A stretch of 64,000 nucleotides of DNA from the NCBI GenBank assembly GCA_049997875.1, contig JBEKRC010000004.1, positions 8,928-72,927 on the forward strand, written 5' to 3'. The position numbers were made by a program, and so were the translations under genes. Position 1 is the first letter of the stretch, and the number at the start of each line of letters is the position of its first letter. Below are positions 502 to 41,282 of this stretch, one piece after another. Below the pieces are notes generated by a model. The model was not told the origin of the DNA. It saw nothing but the letters and a program-made list of their open reading frames with translations, and ran no database searches. The stretch is from Minisyncoccia bacterium (GTDB lineage Bacteria; Patescibacteriota; Minisyncoccia; UBA6257; 2-01-FULL-56-20).

Positions 502-531
502 TGAACTTCTGTTTGTGCTTTCGACCTTTCG

Positions 532-888
532 CTATTGTGCCGCCGCAGCGGTTCCGGCCATTTTCTCTTTGTCTGCAGAAGCTGCCGCAGCGCCGACTGC
601 CGCCCCTTCCCCCGCTTTTGCTTTCTTTCTCGTCTTCACCGTCTTCTTCGGAAGGGAAAGCGCCCCGTGCGCCACAAGCAAATTATGCACCGTAAGCGTC
701 GGCTGCGCGCCCATTTTCACCCAATGCGCAACACGCTCCTTGTTCAACGCTGCCACTTTTGTAAGCGGATGGTACGAGCCAAGGTCTTCCACGGGCGGTG
801 CCGCCATTTTGGACCGCTTCTCGGCAACAACCAACCGATAGCTTGGATGATGCTTCTTGCCGATACGCTGCAACTTGATCGCCAACAT
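532..888 (-). CDS. rpsP: 30S ribosomal protein S16
   Basis: MLAIKLQRIGKKHHPSYRLVVAEKRSKMAAP...VKLNKERVAHWVKMGAQPT matches the S16 N-terminal signature. The ATG at 888 is preferred; the track's TTG at 912 lies inside the upstream terminator hairpin. There is an A/G/K-rich C-terminal extension. Confidence 0.85.
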   Translation of the reverse strand: MLAIKLQRIGKKHHPSYRLVVAEKRSKMAAPPVEDLGSYHPLTKVAALNKERVAHWVKMGAQPTLTVHNLLVAHGALSLPKKTVKTRKKAKAGEGAAVGAAAASADKEKMAGTAAAAQ

Positions 889-910
889 AGGGAACAGTGT
901 AGCAAAATCC

Positions 911-935
911 AAAACCCCGCGTCAAGCGGGGTTTT
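911..935. terminator. Perfect 10-bp hairpin AAAACCCCGC-gtcaa-GCGGGGTTTT with A/T flanks; intrinsic terminator usable on either strand
   Basis: Seen directly in the sequence; it sits between the membrane-protein gene (999..1703) and rpsP. Confidence 0.7.
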
Positions 936-998
936 AGATGCTACGCACATAAATTTGGTTTTTGCCTCGCTGCCAAATTTAGAATCTTTTCACAAACT

Positions 999-1703
999 CT
1001 ATCGCGCTTCCGTGCGATCGCGCAACTTTCCCAAAAGGTATGTCGCGTATTCCCTCCCGCCAAGGCCGAAGGCCAAACCGCCCGCCAGGGCAAGCATCGC
1101 GATGAATCCCGTCACAATGCTTTGGATGATAGAAACCGCAATCTCTAGCTGCGTAAGCGCCGCAAGGAACCCGAAGATCACGATCGCCCACCACGTGAGC
1201 GTCCCCAAGAAGTGCGCCGCGTGGAGCTTTGCGCTCAAAACCGACGCCATCACGACCCGCCGCATGAAATGCCCCACGACCACCGCCGCGAGCATGATGA
1301 GCACCGCCGCGATCACGTTCGGAATATACGTGAGCACCGCGCCCAAGAAGTTTGAGAGTGCGTAGAGGCCCAGGCTGCCGCACACCGCAAGCAGAAACGC
1401 AATCACAATGAACCAGTAGACCAGGCGGCCGAGGAAATACGATCCCCGAAGGCGCAGGCCGGCGCGTTCAAAATAGGGCCTCAGACCAAGCTTTTGAAGA
1501 AACGTGTCCAGGCGAAGCGCTTCAAAGATCTTTTCCACGAGCGCTCCCAGCGCTGCGGCGACGATAAGGCCGAGGATAAGAACGATGATTGCTCCGATCA
1601 GGTTCGGCACAAAGCTCGCGAATTGGAGCCATACGCTCTGGAGCGACACCACCACAAACTCCGTCCAACTCTGTATTATCATTATTTCATGACAAACCCC
1701 CAA
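999..1703 (-). CDS. Polytopic membrane protein, conserved-TM-helix-repeat / small mechanosensitive channel-like
   Basis: 234 aa with multiple hydrophobic helices (IGAIIVLILGLIVAAALGALVEKIF...) and repeated helix modules; no catalytic motifs. Confidence 0.5.
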   Translation of the reverse strand: MGVCHEIMIIQSWTEFVVVSLQSVWLQFASFVPNLIGAIIVLILGLIVAAALGALVEKIFEALRLDTFLQKLGLRPYFERAGLRLRGSYFLGRLVYWFIVIAFLLAVCGSLGLYALSNFLGAVLTYIPNVIAAVLIMLAAVVVGHFMRRVVMASVLSAKLHAAHFLGTLTWWAIVIFGFLAALTQLEIAVSIIQSIVTGFIAMLALAGGLAFGLGGREYATYLLGKLRDRTEAR

Positions 1704-1747
1704 AACTGTCGACCTTTAGGCTACCCTATTATTATAACCGATTCAGC

Positions 1748-2440
1748 CTAGCCGGCTGTGGATGACGCAAGGGCTCGGTCAATCACCGCTTTAAAGTCAT
1801 CAAAGCCGTTCGGATTCGGAATCTGCGTCCGATTTAGGAAGAAGGTCGGTGTGTGGTCAATGGAAGCAGCGTTCCCGCTTGCCACATCGGCAGCAATCTT
1901 ATCCGTCACCTTGGTTGTATTGATGTCCTGGTTAAACTTATTCACGTCCAAACCGAGCGAGGCAGCGTAGCCGTCAAAATATTGGCCCACGACTGCGTCC
2001 GGCGATGCGGCCACCCACTCGCTTTGTTTTTGATACAGCACGCCGTGCATCTCCCAATATTTTCCCTGAAGCCCTGCCGCTTCCGCCGCCTGTGAGGAAA
2101 TCTGCGCATCGGGGTGAATGGAATACAATGGAAAATTCCTGAATGCGAAAAGGACCGTGCTGCTGAAATTCTGCACAAGCTGGCTCATGATCGGCGCCCA
2201 TTCGGCACATGCCGGGCATTCATAGTCGGCATATTCAATCACGGTCACGCTTGCTTTCGGATTGCCGCGCGTCCAGTCGGAAGACGCGATCGCGGGCACC
2301 GTGGTCGCCACGAATCCCTTGGGAGTTGAACTGCTGTTTGATCCCGTAGAAAATCCGCCGGACAAGACACCCGCCACAATCACGACCGCTACCGCGAGCG
2401 CCACAAACCCAATGATGAACCAAAGTGTGATTTTATCCAT
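1748..2440 (-). CDS. DsbA-like thiol:disulfide oxidoreductase, membrane-anchored
   Basis: N-terminal TM segment (ITLWFIIGFVALAVAVVIVAGVL), thioredoxin-fold CPAC active site (YECPACAEW) and DsbA-like C-terminal region; the ATG at 2440 is chosen (MDKITLW). Confidence 0.75.
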   Translation of the reverse strand: MDKITLWFIIGFVALAVAVVIVAGVLSGGFSTGSNSSSTPKGFVATTVPAIASSDWTRGNPKASVTVIEYADYECPACAEWAPIMSQLVQNFSSTVLFAFRNFPLYSIHPDAQISSQAAEAAGLQGKYWEMHGVLYQKQSEWVAASPDAVVGQYFDGYAASLGLDVNKFNQDINTTKVTDKIAADVASGNAASIDHTPTFFLNRTQIPNPNGFDDFKAVIDRALASSTAG

Positions 2441-2444
2441 AGGA

Positions 2445-2660
2445 TTACGGCCGGTTATGCCGCAAATTGTCCATCGCCCAGCAATATTCAATAAATAGAA
2501 ACGCAATCCACTGCGGGTCGTGCATCGCAATAAGGATCCAGGTACCGAAAACAAGCGCCACTGTTTCAATCACCCAAAAAATCGCATCAAAGATCTCCTC
2601 GTGCCGCGATTTCTCCTCGTTATTCGTGATGTATTTCAGAAATTTCCACACGATTTTCAT
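2445..2660 (-). CDS. Small hypothetical membrane protein (71 aa)
   Basis: ORF from the ATG at 2660 (MKIVWKFLKY...) with one hydrophobic helix; AT-rich; no recognisable motif. Confidence 0.35.
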   Translation of the reverse strand: MKIVWKFLKYITNNEEKSRHEEIFDAIFWVIETVALVFGTWILIAMHDPQWIAFLFIEYCWAMDNLRHNRP

Positions 2661-2668
2661 GTTACGCG

Positions 2669-2980
2669 TTATTGCAGCAATAGCACAATCACCACTCCGA
2701 TAAGGAACAAAATCAACCATGCGAGCGTGGCAAAGAGCAGAACAAATGCTTCCTTTTTAAGGCCGTTCAAATATAGGTAAATGGGTCTTCCCAGAACCAA
2801 TAGTCCCGTTATGGAAGCCGATACGACGAACAGCAGCAACGCGAACAACGGCGTAAGAAAACTGGTCGTCCTGCCGAAGATCGCCTGGCTATTGAAACCA
2901 AGCCAGGCAACCGCAGCGACATATAAAAACGTACCGACCGCGCTTATCAAACTTTTTGAGACATACTCTGACTTTTTCAT
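2669..2980 (-). CDS. Hypothetical 3-TM membrane protein (103 aa)
   Basis: Three hydrophobic helices; AT-rich islet adjacent to DsbA. Confidence 0.4.
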   Translation of the reverse strand: MKKSEYVSKSLISAVGTFLYVAAVAWLGFNSQAIFGRTTSFLTPLFALLLFVVSASITGLLVLGRPIYLYLNGLKKEAFVLLFATLAWLILFLIGVVIVLLLQ

Positions 2981-3115
2981 AGATTTCGTTTTCCTTGTGG
3001 ACTCAGCGAGAATCGGACTCGCGTCTCCGCAATGCGAATGCGGCGTATTACCACTATACTATGAGCCCCTGTTTCTCTTTAGAAGATAATAGCACCTAAC
3101 AAAAAGTTTTTCAAT

Positions 3116-4012
3116 TCATTTCAGGAAATTATAGGGAAAGTTGCTGAATCTTCTCTTCGCGAACATCGGTACGGAATGAAAGAACTGGATCCATGCCCTA
3201 AGGTAGTGTTTTTTAACATAGATGTCCTCATTGTGCTCAACGAGCAGCTTGAATATCGCCAAAATTGTTTCTTGATAATACTCGTGGCTATTTGTGCGCA
3301 GAGTCTTTCGCCATAGATTGATTATTCTTTCGTTCTCGGGGGCGTTGATAAACGTTTCTACGGAGAAGAGAGACCTCGTCCCCAATATGCTGAATATTTC
3401 ATGTGCATCCGGATCGCCAATGGTTAGATATTTCCCTTTGTATGCATAAAGGATCCTCGGGAAGGGATCGTATCCGGTCTTGTCCTCTATCAAAAATGGG
3501 AGGCGGACGTTGCGCTCATCCAACTCTCTCTTTAGACGTTTGATCTGTTTCTTTCCATAATAATCGACGACGAAATGCTTCGGGTGCGGGACGATGATCA
3601 TCATTTCCCGTTTGTGAGCGACATACTCTAAAAACTCTTCTTCGGTGAGATTAGCAAAGATCTCTTCGTTAGGCAGAATTCGGTAATGAAGCTTCTCGGT
3701 GTAGCCCCTCAGATCGTCATGATTGCCGAAAGTCAGGAGTTCCCTTCTTGCAACTAGCTTTAAAACGGCGTCGGTCATCCTTTTTTTTATTTTCCACTGG
3801 ATGCCCGGGATGACCAGTACCTTTTCGGTGGAAAAACTTATCGCTTGGCTTACCAATAATGGAATTACGTTATGGTCCGATACGCCTAAAACCGCATATT
3901 CTTTTTCTTTCAGGGTTTTTTCCAAGTATGCCACATATTCGCGAATTGTGGTCGAGCTATCATGGGATCTTTCCGAATGGACGTGAAAAAGGAAAAAGAG
4001 GCGCGGGCTCAC
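3116..4012 (-). CDS. PHP-domain metal-dependent phosphoesterase
   Basis: PHP motifs HVHSERSHDS (HxH..S.D) and VSDHN; 298 aa; AT-rich relative to flanks. Confidence 0.6.
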   Translation of the reverse strand: MSPRLFFLFHVHSERSHDSSTTIREYVAYLEKTLKEKEYAVLGVSDHNVIPLLVSQAISFSTEKVLVIPGIQWKIKKRMTDAVLKLVARRELLTFGNHDDLRGYTEKLHYRILPNEEIFANLTEEEFLEYVAHKREMMIIVPHPKHFVVDYYGKKQIKRLKRELDERNVRLPFLIEDKTGYDPFPRILYAYKGKYLTIGDPDAHEIFSILGTRSLFSVETFINAPENERIINLWRKTLRTNSHEYYQETILAIFKLLVEHNEDIYVKKHYLRAWIQFFHSVPMFAKRRFSNFPYNFLK

Positions 4013-8643: not shown

Positions 8644-9486
8644 TTAGCATCTGTAGGAATTTATCAACCTTTCCAATATTTCCTTTTTCTCCAAAGATTC
8701 TTTCCAAACACTGTTTGAACGTAATCCATTTATACAAACGCCGTCCGAAAAATTTATGACATCTCTAAATCTCAAAAGATCGGCTCTCCGTGAAATACAG
8801 AGTTCATAAAATCGCGCTTCCATCCGGCTCGCGATGCCGAGGTCGGCAAGCAATTCCTTCACTAACTGCAAAATTTCTAAAGAATGCTGGTATCCGCGGA
8901 CGATCCGTTTTCTTGGAGTAAACGTAACGTTGCCTTCGTCGTCATAAAAGGCTTTCAAAAATGCGGTCTTCTCCTCATAAGAACCGCCACGGATATAACT
9001 TAAAAGTTCTCTGACTTTCTGTCTCAAAAACGCTGCAATTTCAACATGATGATAGCTCACCCTCAACACGCCATCTGGCTTCCTGAGCAATTTATAATCA
9101 GAAACTCCCAGGACTGTATCCATAAGCGAGATGACGTTATTTACCAGTGTTCGGCTCCGATTGTTGTAAATAGATGAAACCCGCGAAATTTCTCCATCAA
9201 ACATAAAATGAGCCACCAAACCAACAAAGGCCGCATTCCATTCCAATGGCACCCGGTAAGAATACGGCTTTACAGATTTACCACGCCTCCCGTCGGTTAA
9301 TGTTTTCTGCTTGGCGCGATTGATGGCGAGGAGTCTTCCTTTAAGATAGTTGGACTTTGCTAAATTTTTTATGTGATAAAATGCGGTTGACTTGGGAATG
9401 TTCGTTTCGGTGATAATTTCACCCAAGGTGAAACCTTGCTGCCGAAGTAATTTTATTCTTTCAATGGTTTCAGCGCTCTGCTTCAT
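8644..9486 (-). CDS. LAGLIDADG-type homing-endonuclease-like protein with N-terminal HTH domain
   Basis: Two LAGLIDADG-like motifs (FVGLVAHFMFDGEIS and FLKAFYDDEGNV) and an N-terminal HTH (GFTLGEIITETNIPKSTAFYHIKNL). The ATG at 9486 is 1 nt from the tRNA-Lys 3' end; lower GC than the backbone. Confidence 0.55.
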   Translation of the reverse strand: MKQSAETIERIKLLRQQGFTLGEIITETNIPKSTAFYHIKNLAKSNYLKGRLLAINRAKQKTLTDGRRGKSVKPYSYRVPLEWNAAFVGLVAHFMFDGEISRVSSIYNNRSRTLVNNVISLMDTVLGVSDYKLLRKPDGVLRVSYHHVEIAAFLRQKVRELLSYIRGGSYEEKTAFLKAFYDDEGNVTFTPRKRIVRGYQHSLEILQLVKELLADLGIASRMEARFYELCISRRADLLRFRDVINFSDGVCINGLRSNSVWKESLEKKEILERLINSYRC

Positions 9487-9487
9487 G

Positions 9488-9560
9488 TGCCCCCACTAGG
9501 ACTCGAACCTAGGACCATCTCGTTAAAAGCGAGCTGCTCTGCCAACTGAGCTATGGGGGC
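9488..9560 (-). tRNA. tRNA-Lys (anticodon UUU)
   Basis: Hand-folded cloverleaf: acceptor GCCCCCA/TGGGGGC, D-arm GCTC-AGTTGGCA-GAGC, anticodon loop CTTTTAA, T-arm CTAGG-TTCGAGT-CCTAG, discriminator A; 73 nt; CCA not encoded. Confidence 0.85.
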
Positions 9561-11050: not shown

Positions 11051-12157
11051 CTATCCTCCCTCCTCCAAATCCTCCAGTAATTTCTTCGCATTCGCACTTA
11101 GCTTCTTTGGCGCCTTGATAATGAAATTCACGAAAAGATCGCCGCGGCCATACGAACCGAACCGCGGCATGCCTTCGCCCGGGATACGCAAATTGTCTTT
11201 CAGGTTGAAGTGCGCGGGGATCTCCACGGCGATCTTGCCGCCCGAGATGGTCGGAACCTCAATTTTCTTTCCAAGGAGAAGATGGATGACGTTCAATTCC
11301 CGCGCGACGACGAGGTCATTCCCGTTGCGTTCAAAAAGGTGATGCGGCTTCACGCGCACGCGGATGTAAAGATCGCCCGCCGCCGTACCGCGCTCGCCCG
11401 CCTCGCCCATCCCCTTCACCTTGATCAATTGGTTGTCCTCAATGCCCGGCAAGAGTTCCACGTTTACCTCGCGCGCGGCCTCCATCCGGCCCGCTCCCTT
11501 GCACGTGCTGCATGATTTTTTCGGCACTTCTCCCGTGCCGTGGCACTTCTCACAGATCTTTACCTGCGAGAAACTGCCGAAGAACGTCCGGCGCTGCTCG
11601 CGGATCTCGCCGCGCCCGTCGCAGGTGGAACATTTTTCAAAACCGCTCCCTGCCTCGGCGCCCTTGCCGCCGCACTTCGCGCATTGCACGAACGTACGCA
11701 AGTGCAGGGTTTTCGTCACGCCGCGGAACGCTTCCTCAAGCGTGATTTCCTCGTGCATTTCAAGATCCGAACCGCGCTCGTACGTTTTTCGCGCGGGACG
11801 CACGCCCATCCCTTCAAAAAAGCTCTCAAAAATGTCGCCGAGGTCGCCCATATCGCCGAAATTTTGCGGATCAAAACCGAATCCGAACCCTTCCCAATTT
11901 GGCGCTCCTCCCGGAAAACCGCCCCATTGGGTACCGCCGAACCCCACTCCCGGCTCCGCCGTGCCGAAACGGTCGTACTGGGCGCGCTTCGTCCTATCCG
12001 AAAGCACCTGGTACGCTTCGTTGATCTCCTTGAACCTGCTTTCGTCGCCGCCCGGCTTGTCCGGGTGGTACTGATGCGCGAGCTTGCGGTACGCCTTTTT
12101 CACTTCCTCGTCGGAAGCGTTTTTTGCAACCCCCAAAATATGATAATAATCTTTCAT
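11051..12157 (-). CDS. dnaJ: Molecular chaperone DnaJ
   Basis: J-domain with HPD (YHPDKPGG), Gly/Phe region and four CxxCxGxG zinc-finger repeats. Confidence 0.95.
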
Positions 12158-12202: not shown

Positions 12203-13246
12203 TTAATACGTAATGACCTCTTGGGTCTGCGTAATCTTATCTATATGCATGAATCCGGTTGCGAGCAAGATCTCGTAGACAATAAGCGATGCGAACTCAG
12301 CAACCCAAACGAATGCAATGCCGATACTGCGGAGGATGAAAAATAAAATGATGGCCCACACCGCAATAAATTGGGTTTGAAAATGGTCCCGCAACCCGAC
12401 GAGTGTGGCGACGAGGTAGTCGTACGCCACGTCGCTCACCGTTTCATCGGGTGCCGGCGCTATTTTGGTCGTCTGCGCCACGCTCGCCGTCAATTGCGCC
12501 GCGGCCTGCGCGACCGTCTTATTCTGCTCCGATTGGTTTAGCGATCCGAACGCCGGATTTTGCGCGAGCTCCGTCCTCGCAATGTTCTCCGCAAATGTCC
12601 CGAAGGAACCCGCGAGCGGAACATTGGGGTAGAAACCATTCACCACGCCCGCGGCCCAATCAAAGAATACGTGAAAATCCCCGCGCGCCACGAATACCGG
12701 TTGCCCCTGACTCTCCGCCTGCGGCACGTACACAAGAATCATGACCAAAACGAGGGCTGTCACCACCTTCCCCAACACGCTTCGCGCTATCCTAAAGAAT
12801 TGGACCTCAATGCTGCCGCGCAGCGCCGAACGGCTCGCGAAATATCCCCAGAGGAGCACCGCGAACGCGACGAGTCCCGCGATGCCGGCGATCAACCAGC
12901 TGTCGTAAAACAAAAAGCACGCGATAAGCGCCACTGATTCCCCAAAAATAACGAGTGTCCGCCGCCCAATTCCCTTTGCAAGAAAAACCTGCAATGCGGA
13001 ACATGCGGAGAAAAGGAGAAACGCGGCGAAGAGATACCACGGCGAGGAAGCGACGGAAAGATAACGGAAATAGAACCAGCCGAAACAGAGCGCGGAGGCG
13101 ATGCTCAAGAAATCAATTACAATGGACCGCCAAAATCCTTCCGTTCCCGCAGAGGACGATACCTTATTGGGATTGATCAGGTTTTGGCTCTGGTTTTGGC
13201 TCTGGGTTCTCGGTCCCGTGAGCGTCGCCGGATTGATTTCCATCAT
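12203..13246 (-). CDS. Hypothetical polytopic membrane protein inserted between dnaK and dnaJ
   Basis: 347-aa ORF with 6 or more TM helices. The track ORF overlaps the dnaK 3' end by 83 nt, so the true start is probably downstream at a non-ATG codon; N-terminal QSQNQSQN low-complexity stretch. Confidence 0.5.
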
Positions 13247-15062
13247 TCTTATTATAGAACGCCTGGCCGATTTTTTGAATCTCGGCCGAAAGCGACGCTG
13301 TGGCCGACTGGATCGCCGCCATGTCTTCCCCCTCCTCTGCCTTTTTGAGTGCCGTGAGCTTTTCCGCCACGCCGCCTTTCACATCGGCCGGCAATTTATC
13401 GCCCGCGTCCTTCAATGCTTTCTCCGTCGTGTAGATGAGCGATTCTGCCTGGTTGCGCGCCTCAACTAATTCCCTCTTTTTGGCATCCTCGGCTGCGTGC
13501 TCGGTTGCTTCTTTCTTTAATTTCTCAATTTCGTCCTTTGAAAGGTTTGTGGACGCCTGGATCTTCACCGATTGCGTCTTGCCGGTCGCTTTGTCCTTAG
13601 CGGAGACGTTCAGAATGCCGTTCGCGTCAATATCAAACGTGACCTCAATCTGCGGCATGCCGCGCGGGGAAGGCGGAATGCCATCCAGCATGAAGCGCGC
13701 GAGTGTTTTGTTATCTCCCGCCATCGGGCGTTCGCCTTGCACCACGTGCACTTCCACGGATGTCTGATTGTCCGCGGCTGTGCTGAAAATCTGCGTCTTC
13801 GCGGTCGGCACCGTCGTATTCTTTTGGATCATGGGCGTCGCGACCGCGCCGTACGTTTCAATTGCGAGCGTGAGCGGCGTCACGTCCAAGAGCAAAATAT
13901 CTTTCACGTCGCCCTGCAGAATGCCTGCCTGTACCGCCGCCCCTGCTGCCACTACTTCGTCAGGATTGATCCCTTGGTGCGGATCCTTCCCAAAAAGTTT
14001 TTTCACCGCATCCTGCATTGCGGGCATCCGCGTCTGCCCGCCCACCAAAATCACTTCGTTGATGTCCCCCATTTTGAACCCGGCGCCCTTCGGCGCGGGC
14101 GATGTGACGGTCTCATTTGTCAACTGGATGGACCGGTCAATATACTTCTGTACGAGCGATTCCAGTTTCGCGCGCGAAAGTTTCATCAGGAAGTGCTTCG
14201 GGCCGTTCGCATCGGAGCTGATATACGGCAGATTGATCTCGGTTTCCACCGCCGTTGAAAGTTCGTGTTTCGCCTTTTCGGCCGCCTCCTTCAGGCGCTG
14301 GAGCGCAAGCGGGTCCTTTGAAATATCAATCCCCTCCTGCTTTTTATATTCCACGACGAGATATTGCTGGATTTCTTTGTCAAAATCGTCGCCGCCCAAG
14401 TGCGTGTCGCCACCGGTCGCTTTCACCTCCACAACATCGTCGCCCACCTCAAGCACGGAAATATCAAATGTCCCGCCGCCAAAATCGTAGACGACGATCT
14501 TTTCGCTTTTCTGCTTGTTCAAACCATACGCAAGCGCCGCCGCCGTCGGCTCGTTGATGATGCGGCGCACCTTGAGGCCCGCAATCTCGCCCGCATTCTT
14601 CGTTGCTTGCCGCTGCGAGTCGTCAAAATACGCCGGCACCGTGATCACGGCCTCTTCTACCTTCTCGCCAAGCTTCGCTTCCGCGTCGGCTTTCAATTTG
14701 CCAAGGATAAACGCGGAGATCTCTTCCGGCGAATACCACTTGTCGCCCATTTTCACTTCCACGCCGCCGGTCGCACTCGCCTGGATATCGTACGGAAGCC
14801 ACGCCTTATCCCGTTGCACCTCGGGGTCGGTAAATTTCCGTCCCATCAGGCGCTTCACCGAAAAGATGGTATTCTTCGGGTTCGTCACCGATTGCCGCTT
14901 CGCGAGCAACCCCACCAATCGTTCGTTTGATTTTGAGAGCGCCACGATGGAGGGCGTCGTCCGATTTCCTTCCACATTTTCCAGAATGCGCGGCTCGCCG
15001 CCCTCGGTCACCGCGACCGCGGAGTTCGTCGTCCCCAAGTCAATTCCCAAAATTTTCGCCAT
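13164..15062 (-). CDS. dnaK: Molecular chaperone DnaK (Hsp70)
   Basis: [26 protein letters not shown] and the remaining Hsp70 signatures; 632 aa. Confidence 0.97.
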
Positions 15063-15068
15063 TGTTTT

Positions 15069-15764
15069 TTATTTTATTAATTTTTTCAAATAGTTAATGG
15101 GCCGACAAATACCCATATTGGCGGGGATATCTGCAAATTTGGATTGGTTAGCGGGATCAGTTTGCACTCGGCTAGAGATTCTTCCACTCACAATACCGAT
15201 AACTTCGCCGGTTGATTTCGAAAATAACGGCGATCCGCTTGAGCCACTGTTAGTGTGTGTGTCAATCATAAAGAAATGCAACGACTTATCTTGCATCCGC
15301 CTTTTTATCGAACTGACTATGCAATGGTTCGCACTCATTGTGATTCCAAATCCCATTGCTAAAAGCTCTGTGGCTAAGGGATATCCCATAAACAGAAGCT
15401 CATCGCCCTCTCTAACTTTTTCCGAATCACCGATTTTCTCTACTGGGATGAAGTTGTCTTTTCCCTTTATTTTCATAACAGCAATGTCGTTTTCTTCGTC
15501 GAGCCTAACGACCTCAATGTCAACCTTCTTATAATAAGTAATTGCGTCTTCTACTCGATCTATCACTTGTGCACTCAAATACTGCCGCTGATTTTCAGGG
15601 ATCTCTTTGTAAACATGTGCATTAGTAATGAACGTACCATCCTTCAAAACAATGAAACCAGTTCCGCGGATACTCAGCTGGGCTTGGTTATTCGAACCCG
15701 GAATAACTAACTGCAGAAGGATGATTGCCTTGCTATTATTTTCGATAATTTTTGAGTTTTCCAT
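15069..15764 (-). CDS. Cytoplasmic trypsin-like (S1/Trypsin_2) serine protease
   Basis: Catalytic triad in order: His (TNAHV), Asp (NDIAVMKI), Ser (TNSGSSGSPLF, GDSGGP-like); no signal peptide; strongly AT-rich versus the flanking dnaK and grpE. Confidence 0.65.
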   Translation of the reverse strand: MENSKIIENNSKAIILLQLVIPGSNNQAQLSIRGTGFIVLKDGTFITNAHVYKEIPENQRQYLSAQVIDRVEDAITYYKKVDIEVVRLDEENDIAVMKIKGKDNFIPVEKIGDSEKVREGDELLFMGYPLATELLAMGFGITMSANHCIVSSIKRRMQDKSLHFFMIDTHTNSGSSGSPLFSKSTGEVIGIVSGRISSRVQTDPANQSKFADIPANMGICRPINYLKKLIK

Positions 15765-15769
15765 AGTTT

Positions 15770-16387
15770 TTACGTTTTATTTCTTATTTTCAATTTATTT
15801 CTCGACCTAGTAAGTAATTCCCTTTTTGTCCAGCCAACGAAGCCTTCGGGACCGTATCTTTCAATCTTCACAACTTGCTGAGAATCTAGTAAAAACAGGA
15901 ATGGGGCTGGTTTATTATTGTTATTGTTCAAAAAATTATTGGCAATCTCATCAAAATCGGAAAGAAGAGCAAATACCCCCAAATTTATTGCTATGCTAGA
16001 AGGGAAAAAATCAGTCAGTTTATCAATATAGGCATTAGTGCTCGAACCGGTATCTACAATCTGTATTGATTTTCCTATAAAGCTTTCTTTTATCGTACCA
16101 GCATGAATTTCTTTAATATTTGGCGCAGGAATAAAAAATTTTGCGTTGCTGCTAAGTTGGAATCTTAGGGTTGATGTGTGGATTCTATCAAAATAGGGGG
16201 TTGAAAGCACGCCCGAGTGGTTCTCGGCCGCTAATAAAGGCAAACAATCGATCGTGTACCCTGCCGCGGGGATGCAACGAAGACAATATTCGCTACTTGA
16301 ATCAAAATTACGTTCAAACGAGCCTAACCGCAGTTGCGTTACATACTTTTCTACAATTTTTAATTTTCTCTGACGAAAATCTTCCAT
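15770..16387 (-). CDS. Hypothetical CxxC protein, possibly thioredoxin-fold
   Basis: 205 aa; an N-terminal YCLRC (CxxC) motif preceded by F-x-SSSE, and a C-terminal FLFLLDSQQVVKIERYGPEGFVGW resembling the redoxin beta-strand region; AT-rich; abuts the protease gene. Confidence 0.35.
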   Translation of the reverse strand: MEDFRQRKLKIVEKYVTQLRLGSFERNFDSSSEYCLRCIPAAGYTIDCLPLLAAENHSGVLSTPYFDRIHTSTLRFQLSSNAKFFIPAPNIKEIHAGTIKESFIGKSIQIVDTGSSTNAYIDKLTDFFPSSIAINLGVFALLSDFDEIANNFLNNNNNKPAPFLFLLDSQQVVKIERYGPEGFVGWTKRELLTRSRNKLKIRNKT

Positions 16388-16388
16388 A

Positions 16389-16946
16389 TTATTTCTGCTT
16401 GCTTATAATCACGCGCGCGGCCCGCAATACCTTGTCATGTAATTTGTATCCGGGCTCTATCTCTTCCACGATCGCCCCGGGCGATTGTTCCGATTCCACT
16501 TCGGTCATCGCCTCGGCGACCGCCGGGTCAAACGGATCGCCCGGCTTAATAATTATCTTCGTAAGTCCGCGCTTTTTCAGAATGTCTTCTATCTGCGACC
16601 GAATAAGATACACTCCCTTATCCACCGTCCCATTCTTTTCCAGCGCACGGAGCCCGAGGTCAAAATTATCCAGCACCGTAATAAAGTCTCTTATAAGATC
16701 TATACTTCCGTACTGCGCCACTTCCTGCAGATGCGCGAATTCCTCTTTTTTGTAATTGATAAAGTCCGCCTTCGCGCGCTGCCATCCGGCAAGATATTCA
16801 TTCTTTTCATCATTACATTTTTGTAACTGTTCTTTGTAAAACTCATTAACAACTTCCCATTCCTCTTTTCCTTCTTTGGGGATTGAGCTGCAATTTTGTT
16901 TATAAAACTCAGCAAATGTTAACTTATCTTTGTTCTCTTCCGCCAT
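16389..16946 (-). CDS. grpE: Nucleotide exchange factor GrpE
   Basis: 185 aa with GrpE core LAGWQRAKADFINYKKE...VLDNFDLGL...IEPGYKLHDKVLRAARV. Confidence 0.85.
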   Translation of the reverse strand: MAEENKDKLTFAEFYKQNCSSIPKEGKEEWEVVNEFYKEQLQKCNDEKNEYLAGWQRAKADFINYKKEEFAHLQEVAQYGSIDLIRDFITVLDNFDLGLRALEKNGTVDKGVYLIRSQIEDILKKRGLTKIIIKPGDPFDPAVAEAMTEVESEQSPGAIVEEIEPGYKLHDKVLRAARVIISKQK

Positions 16947-16954
16947 GTTCTTTA

Positions 16955-17635
16955 TTATAAGCTTTTAAAAACTCGTATGACCTTTTTATAATCCATCCGC
17001 TTCGGGCCGATGGCAAAAATGGAAATGGTGGTACCGTCCATGCGGTAATTCCCGCCGACCACGGAAAGGTTCTCGCTTTTCGTGAGCGGGCTCTTCCTGC
17101 CAATGAAGACCTTCGGCGCTTCGCCCGCCGGGCCGACTTTCTCCGCTGCCCGCGGCAGACGCTCGTCCACATCTTCAAAATCGCGGATCACCGAGCGGAT
17201 CTCGCCGCGATTTTCCCAATCCAGGCAATCCACAAGCTCCTCAAGGCCGGTTTTATACACCGCTTCGTGCGCAAGGTCCGCCGCCACGCTCACGAGCCGC
17301 AATTCAGCAGAAAGATGGCCCAAAAGATCCGGCCACGCACGCTCATGAAAAAGTCCGGCAAGGGTCGGTTCGCGGGATTCCGGAACGGTGCCCAAAAGCC
17401 GCTTTGCGAAAAATTCGTAACCCGCATCCGTGGGCACGCGTCCGGCCGAATGATGCGGCTGCTCCAAATATTCCGCGTCTTCCAGCGCGTCAAGCTCCAG
17501 CCGAATCGTCGCCGGCTTGATGCCGAAATCGTAATGGTCAAAAAGCCAGCCCGAGCTTACGGGCTCTCCTGTCGCAATGAAACCCTGCACCGCCGCTTCA
17601 AGGATTTGCAACGTCCGCTCGTTCATCAAGGCCAT
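16955..17635 (-). CDS. hrcA: Heat-inducible transcription repressor HrcA (short form)
   Basis: N-terminal winged helix (ERTLQILEAAVQGFIATGEPVSSGWL...ATIRLELDALEDAEYLEQPHHSAGRVPTDAGY). The track start at 17656 overlaps CIRCE, so the ATG at 17635 or 17626 is preferred. Confidence 0.75.
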   Translation of the reverse strand: MALMNERTLQILEAAVQGFIATGEPVSSGWLFDHYDFGIKPATIRLELDALEDAEYLEQPHHSAGRVPTDAGYEFFAKRLLGTVPESREPTLAGLFHERAWPDLLGHLSAELRLVSVAADLAHEAVYKTGLEELVDCLDWENRGEIRSVIRDFEDVDERLPRAAEKVGPAGEAPKVFIGRKSPLTKSENLSVVGGNYRMDGTTISIFAIGPKRMDYKKVIRVFKSL

Positions 17636-17645
17636 TATAGCGCGA

Positions 17646-17672
17646 TTAGCAATCATGTCAAGAGAGTGCTAA
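17646..17672. promoter_or_regulatory. CIRCE operator (HrcA binding site) upstream of hrcA-grpE-dnaK-dnaJ
   Basis: TTAGCAATC-N9-GAGTGCTAA matches the CIRCE consensus TTAGCACTC-N9-GAGTGCTAA with one mismatch. Confidence 0.8.
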
Positions 17673-38861: not shown

Positions 38862-41282
38862 TTATACTTCCTTCTTTCTCTCCCCCACCGAATGACCGCC
38901 GAAGCGGCTGCGGAGCGCGGAGAGGATTCGACCCGTATAGCTCGGCGCTTTTCGGGAACGCATGCGGAATTTGAACGCATCTTCTATCGCCGGCAGTTTC
39001 ACGCGCCACTTGCGGCCGGTCTTTAGGGTCCATTCACCCTCGCCGGTCGCGGCGACCGTGCCAGATACCGCATGTAGCTCCTTGCCATAAATGCGGAACG
39101 CGTCTTCCATCCAGCCAACGAGGCGCGATTCAATGACGCTGCCACGGTTGTATACGCGCGCAATCTTCTCAAGATCAAACTTGAATGGCGATTTTTTCAT
39201 GAGCGCGAAACCTTCCGCCAAGGACTGCATCATGCCGTATTCAATGCCGTTGTGGACCATCTTTACGAAATGGCCTGCGCCCGCATCGCCGAAATACGCG
39301 TAGCCCAAGGGCACGGAGAGGTCGGCGAAGAGCGGCTCCAGATATTCAAATGTTTTGCGGTCGCCGCCGATCATGAGCGAGCCGCCGTAGCGCGCGCCGT
39401 GCGGGCCGCCCGAGAAGCCCACATCCACAAACCGAATGCCGCGCTTGCCGAGAAGCTTCGCCCGCCGCACGCTGTCCTCAAAGAACGAATTGCCGGCGTC
39501 TATCACGATGTCGCCTTTTTGGAGGTGCGTCACAATGCCATTCCTGCTCCGTCCCGCGCCGAAGAGAAATTCGTCCACTCCTTTTCCGGCGGTGATCATG
39601 AGCCAGATCACGCGCGGCGAATGTCTTCGCGGCACCGCGAGCTCCGCCGCGAGTTCTGCGAGAGAATACGCCGCCTCAAAACCTTCTCCCTCCAGCTGTT
39701 GCAAGGACTCCGGCGAGCGATTGGCTGCGATGACGCGCCATCCTTTATCGCGCAGCTGCCATGCCACGTTCGCACCCATCTTCCCGAGCCCGAAAATGCC
39801 TATTTCCTTCGGAAGCGCCGAGGTCCCATTTCTTTCCGCCGCGTCATCAAATGCCGCCGCTTCGGCGACAATCTTACGGCCGCCCGGCGCGTAGTGCCGC
39901 AGCGGGACCAAGTTCTTTTTCCACGCAATGATGAACGGGTCTATGAACTTCCACATCGCGGCGATCTCCTCGCTTGAGACAAAGAGCGTCTGGTCGCCCG
40001 CGATGCAGTCCAAAATCAGTTTTTCGTATTCCTCGGTATATTGAGCATGAAGAACGGTTTTCCGAAAATCAAAATTAAATGTCCGTTCTTCAAACTCAAA
40101 CTTGTGTCCCGGCTTTTTGGAATGAAACTTGATGGTGATCCCCTCGGTCGGTTCAAGGTGAATGAAAATGCGGTTATGATGATGTTCGTTCCCTATGCAA
40201 AGGCAGGGCTGTTCGTGGCGCAGCACAATCTCTATCTCTTTGATCGGCTCGCCGAGGCGCTTCCCGCTTTCCATGACGAGCGGCATTCCCTCCCACCGCG
40301 CGCCGGTGAGGAATCCTTTGATACGAAAGTACGTTTCGGTTCTTGAACGGGGAGAAACGCCGGGTACGGAACGGTAGCCGTCGTATTGCGCGCGGAACGA
40401 GTTCTTTGCGGCTTCGCGGGGCGTCTGAATGACGAGGCGCCTCAAAAGCTCCGCGCGGAGCGGACGGATCGCTTGGGCGTCGTACCGCGCGGGCCGTTCC
40501 ATGGCAACGAGCGCGAGCATCTGCAGAAGATGGTTCTGTCCCACATCTTGTAGAGCGCCCACGTGGTCGTAGAATGGGCCGCGTCCCTCGACGCCGATTT
40601 TCTCAAACAGGCGGATGTGCACGCGCGCTATCGTACGGCTCGTCCATTCGTTTTCAAAAAGATCGTTCGCGAACCGGAACATCAGAATATTCTGCAACAT
40701 CTCCTTCGCCAGATAATGGTCTATCCGATACACTTGTTCCTCCCGAAAGAGCTTTGTCAGTTGGGCATCAAGCGCCTTCGCACTCTTCTCATTGTTGCCG
40801 AACGGCTTTTCCACAATTACGCGCGTCCATCCCTCGTTCGGACCGCAGCCGTCGGTCAGATGGCTGCGGTGCAGGTGGGCAAGGATGAGCGAATAAAACT
40901 GCGGCGGGACCGAAAGATAAAAAAGTTTGTTCGCGCACATGCCCCACGCATCGTCAATATTTTTCAAAAGATCGTTGAGCGCCAGGTAGTCCTCCGGAGA
41001 ATCAAACGCCAACCGATGGTACGCGGCAAGGTCAAGGAACGATCGTACGGTTGCGGCGGGCGCGTGCGATGTCCTCTCTTTAAGAATGGTGCGGAGGTGC
41101 GTACGGAGATCGTCGTCGCCCCACGCGCGCCTTGAAACGCCTACGAGTTTGAACTTTGGCGGCAGCTGCTTTTTTGCATGCAAATTAAAAAGCGCCGGCA
41201 CGATCTTTTTCGCCATAAGGTCGCCCGTGGCGCCCAAGACCACGAGAATGGTAGGAATGGTTTGTTTCCGCTCATCTATCAT
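38862..41282 (-). CDS. zwf: Fusion protein: glucose-6-phosphate dehydrogenase (N-terminal ~480 aa) + 6-phosphogluconate dehydrogenase-like NAD(P)-binding enzyme (C-terminal ~300 aa)
   Basis: N-terminal GATGDLMAKKIVPALF and Zwf active-site segment RIDHYLAKE. The C-terminal half has the 6PGDH Rossmann GIFGLGKMGANVAWQL plus ...GDAGAGHFVKMVHNGIEYGMMQ; 806 aa. Confidence 0.8.
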   Translation of the reverse strand: MIDERKQTIPTILVVLGATGDLMAKKIVPALFNLHAKKQLPPKFKLVGVSRRAWGDDDLRTHLRTILKERTSHAPAATVRSFLDLAAYHRLAFDSPEDYLALNDLLKNIDDAWGMCANKLFYLSVPPQFYSLILAHLHRSHLTDGCGPNEGWTRVIVEKPFGNNEKSAKALDAQLTKLFREEQVYRIDHYLAKEMLQNILMFRFANDLFENEWTSRTIARVHIRLFEKIGVEGRGPFYDHVGALQDVGQNHLLQMLALVAMERPARYDAQAIRPLRAELLRRLVIQTPREAAKNSFRAQYDGYRSVPGVSPRSRTETYFRIKGFLTGARWEGMPLVMESGKRLGEPIKEIEIVLRHEQPCLCIGNEHHHNRIFIHLEPTEGITIKFHSKKPGHKFEFEERTFNFDFRKTVLHAQYTEEYEKLILDCIAGDQTLFVSSEEIAAMWKFIDPFIIAWKKNLVPLRHYAPGGRKIVAEAAAFDDAAERNGTSALPKEIGIFGLGKMGANVAWQLRDKGWRVIAANRSPESLQQLEGEGFEAAYSLAELAAELAVPRRHSPRVIWLMITAGKGVDEFLFGAGRSRNGIVTHLQKGDIVIDAGNSFFEDSVRRAKLLGKRGIRFVDVGFSGGPHGARYGGSLMIGGDRKTFEYLEPLFADLSVPLGYAYFGDAGAGHFVKMVHNGIEYGMMQSLAEGFALMKKSPFKFDLEKIARVYNRGSVIESRLVGWMEDAFRIYGKELHAVSGTVAATGEGEWTLKTGRKWRVKLPAIEDAFKFRMRSRKAPSYTGRILSALRSRFGGHSVGERKKEV

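Follow-up and report, generated by a model that had tools for sequence, protein, structure and literature searches.

Why do two AT-rich genes, one for a trypsin-like serine protease and one for a 205-aa (amino acid) protein, lie between grpE and dnaK in the heat-shock operon of a Minisyncoccia bacterium? The genes occupy positions 15069-16387 of a 64,000-nt (nucleotide) stretch of the forward strand of contig JBEKRC010000004.1 (assembly GCA_049997875.1, positions 8,928 to 72,927), referred to here as the window. An earlier note on this DNA took the pair for a cassette that had been horizontally acquired and inserted into the operon. The protease is instead a conserved member of the heat-shock operon in lineages of the Parcubacteria (class Minisyncoccia/Paceibacteria), ultra-small bacteria of the candidate phyla radiation (CPR), not an insert, because the same position is kept in all informative relatives. 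The lineage-typical operon appears to follow the order P(sigma-70)/CIRCE-hrcA-grpE-[X]-protease-dnaK-[Y]-dnaJ, where CIRCE is the controlling inverted repeat of chaperone expression, X is the family of the 205-aa protein and Y is a membrane protein family. The protease is likely to be a cytosolic, ATP-independent quality-control enzyme made together with the DnaK system.

Homologues of the protease number more than 400 in Parcubacteria, at 50-74% identity and a length of about 230 aa. The genomic context was compared across loci with 67 distinct protease sequences, drawn from one genome per GTDB species and from JGI metagenomes. All of the first three contexts inspected have hrcA or grpE upstream of the protease gene and dnaK-dnaJ downstream. 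Wherever a locus extends at least 1.5 kb beyond the protease gene, the same gene is found on that side: grpE upstream (41 of 41 loci) and dnaK downstream (39 of 39). Of the 34 loci with at least 3 kb upstream, 31 have hrcA. A CIRCE element precedes hrcA in 29 related loci, and the gap between the protease gene and dnaK has a median of 76 nt. The named hosts of the operon protease include Giovannoni-, Nealson-, Staskawicz-, Wildermuth- and Falkowbacteria. The two nearest relatives of the window, L001 and L006, are the same whether judged by the protease (71% and 63% identity) or by DnaK (73% and 75%), and pairwise identities of the protease correlate with those of GrpE (r = 0.60) about as those of DnaK do (r = 0.64). 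No repeats flanking 15069-16387 were found. The claim of an inserted, horizontally acquired cassette is thus contradicted by the presence of the protease at the same site in the relatives. These relatives regularly carry the protease here, and a homologue of the 205-aa protein in 29 of 67 loci, which is largely the outcome that the earlier note had named as one that would refute it.

In the window the operon consists of a control region and seven consecutive genes on the minus strand: hrcA, grpE, the open reading frame (ORF) of the 205-aa protein (ORF205), the protease gene, dnaK, a 347-codon ORF (ORF347) and dnaJ.

17634..17672, minus strand: control region, a sigma-70 consensus promoter TTGACA-16-TATAAT (17661..17634) overlapped by a CIRCE inverted repeat (17646-17672)
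16955..17656, minus strand: hrcA, Pfam HrcA 4.1e-13, a short form of about 223-233 aa
16389..16946, minus strand: grpE, Pfam GrpE 2.8e-34
15770..16387, minus strand: ORF205, 205 aa, a member of the X family in the variable slot between grpE and the protease gene
15069..15764, minus strand: protease, 231 aa, HtrA-type (S1C) without PDZ domain or signal peptide, catalytic residues H50, D93 and S176
13164..15062, minus strand: dnaK, a 632-aa ORF with 60-77% identity to the HSP70-annotated genes 3' of the protease gene in relatives
12203..13246, minus strand: ORF347, a multi-pass membrane protein of 347 aa (the Y family) in the variable slot between dnaK and dnaJ
11051..12157, minus strand: dnaJ, 368 aa, with a J-domain and CxxCxGxG repeats, matching DnaJ-annotated genes of related loci

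The control region has the form expected of an HrcA-regulated heat-shock operon, with a CIRCE element at the promoter upstream of hrcA-grpE-dnaK-dnaJ. The promoter ahead of hrcA scores 12 out of 12 against the sigma-70 consensus, the CIRCE repeat has one mismatch against a chance expectation of 0.02 matches, and the -35 box falls within the repeat. Since the listed ATG of hrcA at 17656 sits within this -35 box, the true start is probably the in-frame ATG at 17626, in which case the message would be leaderless. The match to the Pfam HrcA model covers just its C-terminal part, and the HrcA proteins of the relatives are 240-242 aa long. Spacers of 1 nt between grpE and ORF205, 5 nt between ORF205 and the protease gene and 6 nt between the protease gene and dnaK, no terminator-like site found on the coding strand within 15069-16946, and the consensus promoter overlapping CIRCE make co-transcription of grpE-ORF205-protease-dnaK from the HrcA-controlled promoter the simplest reading, and a likely one. 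The earlier note had likewise placed two ORFs between dnaK and grpE and proposed their co-transcription with the chaperones under CIRCE, and both points agree with the present results. Of the spacers it gave, the 6 nt between the protease gene and dnaK is confirmed, and two others are each shorter by one nucleotide (5 rather than 6 nt within the pair, 1 rather than 2 nt between ORF205 and grpE). Its remark that the arrangement is not canonical holds relative to model bacteria.

The compositional contrast that had been taken as an argument for transfer is real, and wider than the pair. GC content and GC content at third codon positions (GC3) are 0.405 and 0.43 in the protease gene and 0.375 and 0.35 in ORF205, compared with 0.558 and 0.69 in dnaK, 0.566 and 0.65 in hrcA, and means of 0.524 (standard deviation, sd, 0.056) and 0.614 (sd 0.090) over the 65 ORFs of the window. 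The low-GC tract extends to grpE (0.452 and 0.52), which is likewise under the window mean, and about 12 of the 65 ORFs have a GC content below 0.46, among them a LAGLIDADG endonuclease gene. Among 45 distinct loci of the related operons, 39 have a protease gene with a lower GC3 than the dnaK beside it (Wilcoxon p = 5e-7). Over the 45 loci the difference averages -0.077, the slope is 0.55 in the regression of protease GC3 on dnaK GC3, and the gap is greatest in GC-rich genomes such as L003 (0.28 against 0.59). The grpE gene shows no comparable GC3 bias relative to dnaK. AT-richness is therefore a recurrent trait of the protease gene family and not a mark of recent arrival, and the inference of transfer from low GC in the window does not hold, because 39 of 45 lineages show the same deficit against dnaK. 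More generally, low GC within an operon can reflect the gene family rather than recent transfer.

These observations bear on the possibility that the two genes form a selfish or defensive cassette, acquired horizontally and exploiting the strong heat-inducible expression of the operon. In its favour, both genes lie some 2-3 sd under the GC and GC3 of the window genes, ORF205 has almost no detectable relatives, and the interval between grpE and the protease gene is a truly variable slot that holds unrelated genes elsewhere, including a 3.2-kb insert in L015. The position of the protease is nevertheless kept in 41/41 and 39/39 loci across several candidate phyla, the low GC3 is recurrent, protease and DnaK point to the same nearest relatives, neither flanking repeats nor mobility genes accompany the pair, and the same slot holds ORF205 homologues in 29 of 67 loci. 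Among the features of a horizontally acquired island, only the atypical composition is seen, and that is family-wide. Nor does the X family show a credible sign of a defence role: a PADLOC scan of the X family (25 members) returned a single match, CARF_TM in one member at E 0.024, and none for ORF205, so that no credible match supports the defensive or parasitic cassette proposed in the earlier note. For the protease this reading is largely refuted, and for the pair as a whole we regard it as very improbable.

The product of the conserved gene is an S1-type serine protease. It matches Pfam Trypsin_2 at 2.3e-24 and Trypsin at 5.5e-15, and H50, D93 and S176 (the last in N-x-GSSGSP) are invariant across 21 diverse homologues (alignment A1). 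A profile of these homologues finds, among the structures of the Protein Data Bank (PDB), the protease domains of HTRA1 (best, 1.3e-15), HtrA, DegQ, DegP, HTRA2 and Deg5. An AlphaFold2 (AF2) model built on the homologue alignment has a mean predicted local distance difference test score (pLDDT) of 85.6, with the fold beginning at residue 3, and its top Foldseek matches are HTRA1 (E 4e-14), MucD, Thermotoga HtrA, DegP, DegQ, DegS and Deg5. The protease thus has the chymotrypsin-fold domain with a His-Asp-Ser triad that characterises the HtrA family (S1C). It does not have the signal peptide or membrane anchor that directs members of this family out of the cytoplasm: a Kyte-Doolittle scan of the protease found no transmembrane (TM)-like segment or hydrophobic N-terminus, and the N-terminal residues belong to the conserved domain in each of the 21 aligned homologues. 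A PDZ domain is also missing, with no Pfam match to one in the protease, a chain that stops about 55 aa past the catalytic serine, and homologues that are all 227-249 aa long. None of the NCBIfam cutoffs for HtrA, DegP, DegQ and DegS is reached; the best score is 80.5 bits against a threshold of 416.2 (TIGR02037, Do family), and the others fall far below. Because no curated HtrA threshold is reached, the protein is best described as an HtrA-type protease domain and not as a canonical HtrA. The signal-less S1 protease with an intact H/D/S triad that the earlier note had described is borne out in each of these respects.

A function can be proposed from the location and the family of the protease. 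Being transcribed with the chaperones from an HrcA-repressed promoter, it would be expected to be heat-induced: once the repression by HrcA is lifted, it would be produced with GrpE, DnaK and DnaJ from a shared transcript. The HtrA-family domain would have lost, or never had, its PDZ domain and export signal, and since neither is found the protease most likely resides in the cytosol. There it would most likely act as an ATP-independent endopeptidase that removes the unfolded proteins DnaK, DnaJ and GrpE fail to refold, forming the degradative arm of chaperone triage, much as DegP/HtrA clears unfolded proteins in the periplasm. A core housekeeping role of this kind fits the very high conservation of the protease, which is close to that of DnaK. 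Among the readings the earlier note had left open, a stress-linked proteolysis module is accordingly the best explanation, and the parasitic or defence cassette is unsupported.

Several points weigh against this picture. The identities of the protease and DnaK correlate weakly across loci (r = 0.28, a value reached by 4 of 2000 Mantel permutations); this probably reflects the narrow span of pairwise identities, although, given such a value, occasional replacement of the protease between related lineages may also have taken place. The systematic GC3 deficit of the protease gene is another such point. The heat induction of the protease and its substrate range are inferred, and any interaction of the protease with DnaK or with the X protein is presumed. 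Its cytosolic location is read solely from the lack of a recognisable signal peptide or TM segment. To our knowledge, the bacterial HtrA proteases studied to date work outside the cytoplasm and are regulated through their PDZ domains; with the PDZ domain absent, a free protease domain in the cytosol would need another mechanism of control.

The family background suggests an alternative in which the protease is exported or surface-associated through an unrecognised signal, and its place in the operon reflects shared heat regulation only. The envelope is, by general knowledge, the site of action of all characterised bacterial HtrA homologues, and the cell biology of CPR bacteria is poorly known. 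Against export stand the N-terminal features of the protease itself, which has no hydrophobic N-terminal segment, folds from residue 3 in the AF2 model, and keeps its N-terminus as part of the domain in 21/21 aligned homologues. We consider export quite improbable.

The small size of the protease admits another function, that of a dedicated regulatory or processing enzyme which would, for example, cleave HrcA or a chaperone cofactor and so tune or reset the heat-shock response. A gene fixed within the hrcA operon, encoding a small single domain without a substrate-tethering PDZ, would agree with such a role, and an identity of 50-74% among homologues, about the level of DnaK, would suit a specific and conserved target. 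There is also some precedent, as lineage-specific feedback factors acting on HrcA in other bacteria are described in PMC12154930. No candidate target for cleavage has emerged, however, and the nearest relatives in sequence and fold are broad-specificity quality-control proteases. A regulatory protease is on these grounds unlikely, and general quality control remains the preferred function.

The second gene of the pair, ORF205, has no Pfam match, and a word-index search over 5.8 billion proteins returned only ORF205 itself. One real relative, P0123 (200 aa, E 5e-5), came out of an exhaustive HMMER search of 1.8 billion representatives; it is encoded directly upstream of a Trypsin_2 protease gene, whose start it overlaps by 8 nt. 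The other match, a 1005-aa repeat protein (P0122), is judged a low-complexity artefact. In L001, the closest genome, a 198-aa ORF with weak similarity and no CxxC motif occupies the position of ORF205. We collected, at every locus, the ORFs ending at the protease start and clustered them by phmmer single linkage. The resulting X family has 29 members of 170-213 aa, ORF205 among them, and is found directly upstream of the protease gene in 29 of 67 loci. Against a hidden Markov model (HMM) of the family built from the other members, ORF205 reaches 55.8 bits, and against one lacking its whole subgroup 25.7 bits; none of 2000 shuffled sequences exceeds 10.6 and 12.0 bits, respectively. From these scores ORF205 is judged to be a real, fast-evolving gene. 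A word-index search with a 25-sequence X profile returned three proteins, two of them apparently metagenome copies of known members. The comparison of two sub-alignments, A2 and A3, by hhalign gave a probability of only 31%; single-linkage clustering and HMMs later united both groups.

The earlier note had described a thioredoxin-like CxxC in the 205-aa protein and cast it as a redox partner of the protease. The motif is there (C35-L-R-C38), and the interpretation fails: the protein has no Pfam match, its first cysteine recurs in 4 and its second in 1 of 25 X members, and neither the L001 protein nor P0123 has the motif. It is on the poor conservation of these cysteines that the thioredoxin idea is rejected.

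A different affinity is indicated by the family profile. Searched against the PDB, the 25-sequence X profile (A4) has a single significant match, the PbHARP protein (7e8k, 'RNA-free ribonuclease P', PIN_5), at E = 4.6e-5, and a second HARP structure, 7e8j, is also among its few matches. The similarity to PbHARP consists of two colinear stretches, such as would be expected of a PIN-like superfamily member. In the first, the VLD/C/S-TS strand and the E motif of X align with VIDTS...EEL; in the second, 'nknD...ivltaD' aligns with 'IIDSKEDVD...ILVTAD', a D-x3-D...TAD motif. The catalytic residues of PbHARP are D151, D155 and D173 (PMC9051087), and D122, D126 and D144 of ORF205 correspond to them. 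Across the family, E93 is kept in 24 of 25 members and D126 in 23, position 144 is D in 17 and N in 5, and D122 is confined to the ORF205 subgroup (4/25). Single X members give matches below threshold that are all of PIN type: PIN_5, TIGR03875 'RNA ligase partner' (the HARP family), PRK12496 and PRK13764.

Other results count against the assignment. It comes from a single significant profile match, which is reproduced neither by the four-sequence sub-alignments A2 and A3, nor by the family consensus, nor by Pfam on the consensus. No X member keeps the full set of acidic residues: the first PIN aspartate is D in 8 of 25 members, C in 8 and S in 6, with S62 in ORF205. A single-sequence AF2 model of ORF205 is unusable (pLDDT 34). 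On balance we lean towards a PIN-like fold for ORF205 and the X family.

About 15 of 26 loci have an X stop codon that overlaps the start of the protease gene, and co-translation of X with the protease is probable. In the lineages that have it, about 40%, X is probably an accessory partner coupled to the protease in translation. This partner is not a redox protein; it may be one that binds or cleaves RNA, or a degenerate adaptor. A stronger form of this idea would make X and the protease a two-component stress module, in which a heat-induced RNase lowers the translation load under the control of the protease, in the manner of a toxin-antitoxin pair, or in which X is a regulatory or adaptor subunit replacing the PDZ domain. 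It would be in keeping with the arrangement of the genes, with X directly upstream and its stop often overlapping the protease start among the 29 of 67 loci, and with the same pairing in P0123, the sole remote homologue among 1.8 billion representatives. The PIN profile similarity, with its conserved E93, D126 and D144, and the retention in ORF205 of equivalents of all three HARP catalytic aspartates point the same way. Over half of the lineages, on the other hand, have the protease without X, so that the protease must function on its own, and most members have C or S in place of the first PIN aspartate. A two-component module of this kind is unlikely.

The slot that X occupies is itself variable. 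The interval between grpE and the protease gene is shorter than 60 nt in 7 loci and longer than 900 nt in 4, with a median of 404 nt, and besides X it can contain an Hsp20 gene, small membrane proteins and two groups of small proteins unrelated to X. The slot ORF groups g2, g3 and g4 were considered as relatives of X and found unrelated by hhalign. A gene for Hsp20 (alpha-crystallin) lies within the operon between grpE and the protease gene in 4 distinct loci and between the protease gene and dnaK in 5; the loci bearing it are L015, L016, L019, L026, L039, L052, L054, L064, L073 and others. In L015, grpE is separated from the X-protease pair by a 3.2-kb block (positions 511-3736) of unrelated genes, in which Hsp20, a DUF559-like endonuclease ORF, a P-loop kinase-like ORF, small ORFs and a masked N run can be recognised by eye. 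This block suggests that the slot can accept larger insertions. L035, a metagenome locus, has at 523-1023 a 166-aa protein directly upstream of the protease which is not X, and whose 'CGPASL...' sequence resembles, by eye, a C39-type cysteine peptidase.

A second variable slot lies between dnaK and dnaJ, where the interval is bimodal across loci. ORF347 has no Pfam match and seven TM-like segments, and homologues fill the same slot in 8 of 34 loci, dnaK and dnaJ being adjacent elsewhere; the identity to its L001 counterpart is 23%. Its listed start overlaps the 3' end of dnaK by 83 nt, for which reason the true start may lie further downstream. A promoter-like site scoring 10/12 occurs at 13279-13251. 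Across the operons, then, the protease is the fixed extra element, and X and Y are lineage-variable accessories.

We found no account of a protease gene within the CPR dnaK operon in a literature search of incomplete coverage, so that a prior description is possible. The finding is a conserved, lineage-specific elaboration of the heat-shock operon with an HtrA-like protease that probably works in the cytosol. In model bacteria the HtrA proteases work in the envelope, and proteins of the cytosol are degraded by ATP-dependent enzymes. Proteostasis seems to be organised differently in the many lineages where a highly conserved gene for a probably cytosolic HtrA-type protease has a constant place between grpE and dnaK. 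The genomes of CPR bacteria are tiny, and protein quality control in these cells has been little studied; the operon protease is a testable candidate for the triage of damaged proteins in them. The grpE-protease-dnaK arrangement could also be used to recognise members of the group by synteny, and the fast-evolving PIN-like partner and the variable slots in an otherwise rigid operon offer further leads.

A broader scenario is that Parcubacteria have equipped their one chaperone operon with a compact stress module, consisting of a cytosolic, PDZ-less HtrA-type protease and, in many lineages, a PIN/HARP-like nuclease coupled to it in translation. Refolding, degradation and either RNA-level shutdown or tRNA processing would then all come from one HrcA-controlled transcript, and the protease might replace ATP-dependent cytosolic proteases lost in genome reduction. 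We offer this as speculation with a small chance of being correct. The large ORFs of the 64-kb window include no Lon, Clp or FtsH, and an Rfam scan of the window gives 4 tRNAs only and no RNase P RNA; neither result says anything about the whole genome.

Two further features of the window lie outside the operon. A LAGLIDADG_3 ORF (GC 0.42, minus strand; region 8644-9560) ends at the base next to the tRNA-Lys(UUU) gene at 9487-9560, and may be a mobile homing-endonuclease element beside, or associated with, this tRNA gene. At 38862-41282 on the minus strand, an 806-aa ORF fuses glucose-6-phosphate dehydrogenase (G6PD_N, G6PD_C) with 6-phosphogluconate dehydrogenase (NAD_binding_2, 6PGD).

Each part of the system can be set beside a known counterpart. 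The operon shares its regulator, the operator lying over a sigma-70 promoter and the order of the four core genes with the canonical HrcA/CIRCE dnaK operon of Firmicutes and Chlamydia, and differs from it in having up to three added internal genes (PIN-like X, the protease and the membrane protein Y) and a short HrcA of about 230 aa. X recalls HARP, the protein-only RNase P of Aquifex and relatives, in that ORF205 retains equivalents of D151, D155 and D173. The first PIN aspartate is mostly gone in X, and its E and D motifs stand about 33 aa apart, compared with about 60 aa in PbHARP. The two halves that match the profile are likewise separated by about 60 aa in PbHARP and by no more than a few profile positions in X. 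The short spacing suggests that X lacks the helical insertion which, in HARP, lies between the PIN halves and carries the tRNA-binding arginines (PMC9051087). Pfam PIN_5 is not reached (best E 0.076), and the patchy distribution of X makes an essential RNase P role unlikely; an identification of X as HARP proper was accordingly rejected.

The protease finds its closest counterparts, by sequence and by fold, in HtrA, DegP, DegQ and DegS (MEROPS S1C, including human HTRA1 and Thermotoga HtrA), with which it shares the chymotrypsin-fold domain and the H-D-S triad. The ATP-independent, heat-shock-linked quality control carried out by this family is a further likeness to the role proposed here. The protease departs from the family in having no PDZ domain, signal peptide or membrane anchor within its 231 aa, and in being encoded within the hrcA-grpE-dnaK-dnaJ operon rather than as a separate envelope-stress gene. 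Deg5 of the chloroplast lumen (PDB 4ic5), recovered by both the sequence and the fold searches, is likewise a stand-alone HtrA protease domain without PDZ. Deg5 is eukaryotic and targeted to an organelle, where it acts as a hetero-oligomer with the PDZ-bearing Deg8, whereas no such PDZ-bearing partner is evident for the protease of the heat-shock operon.

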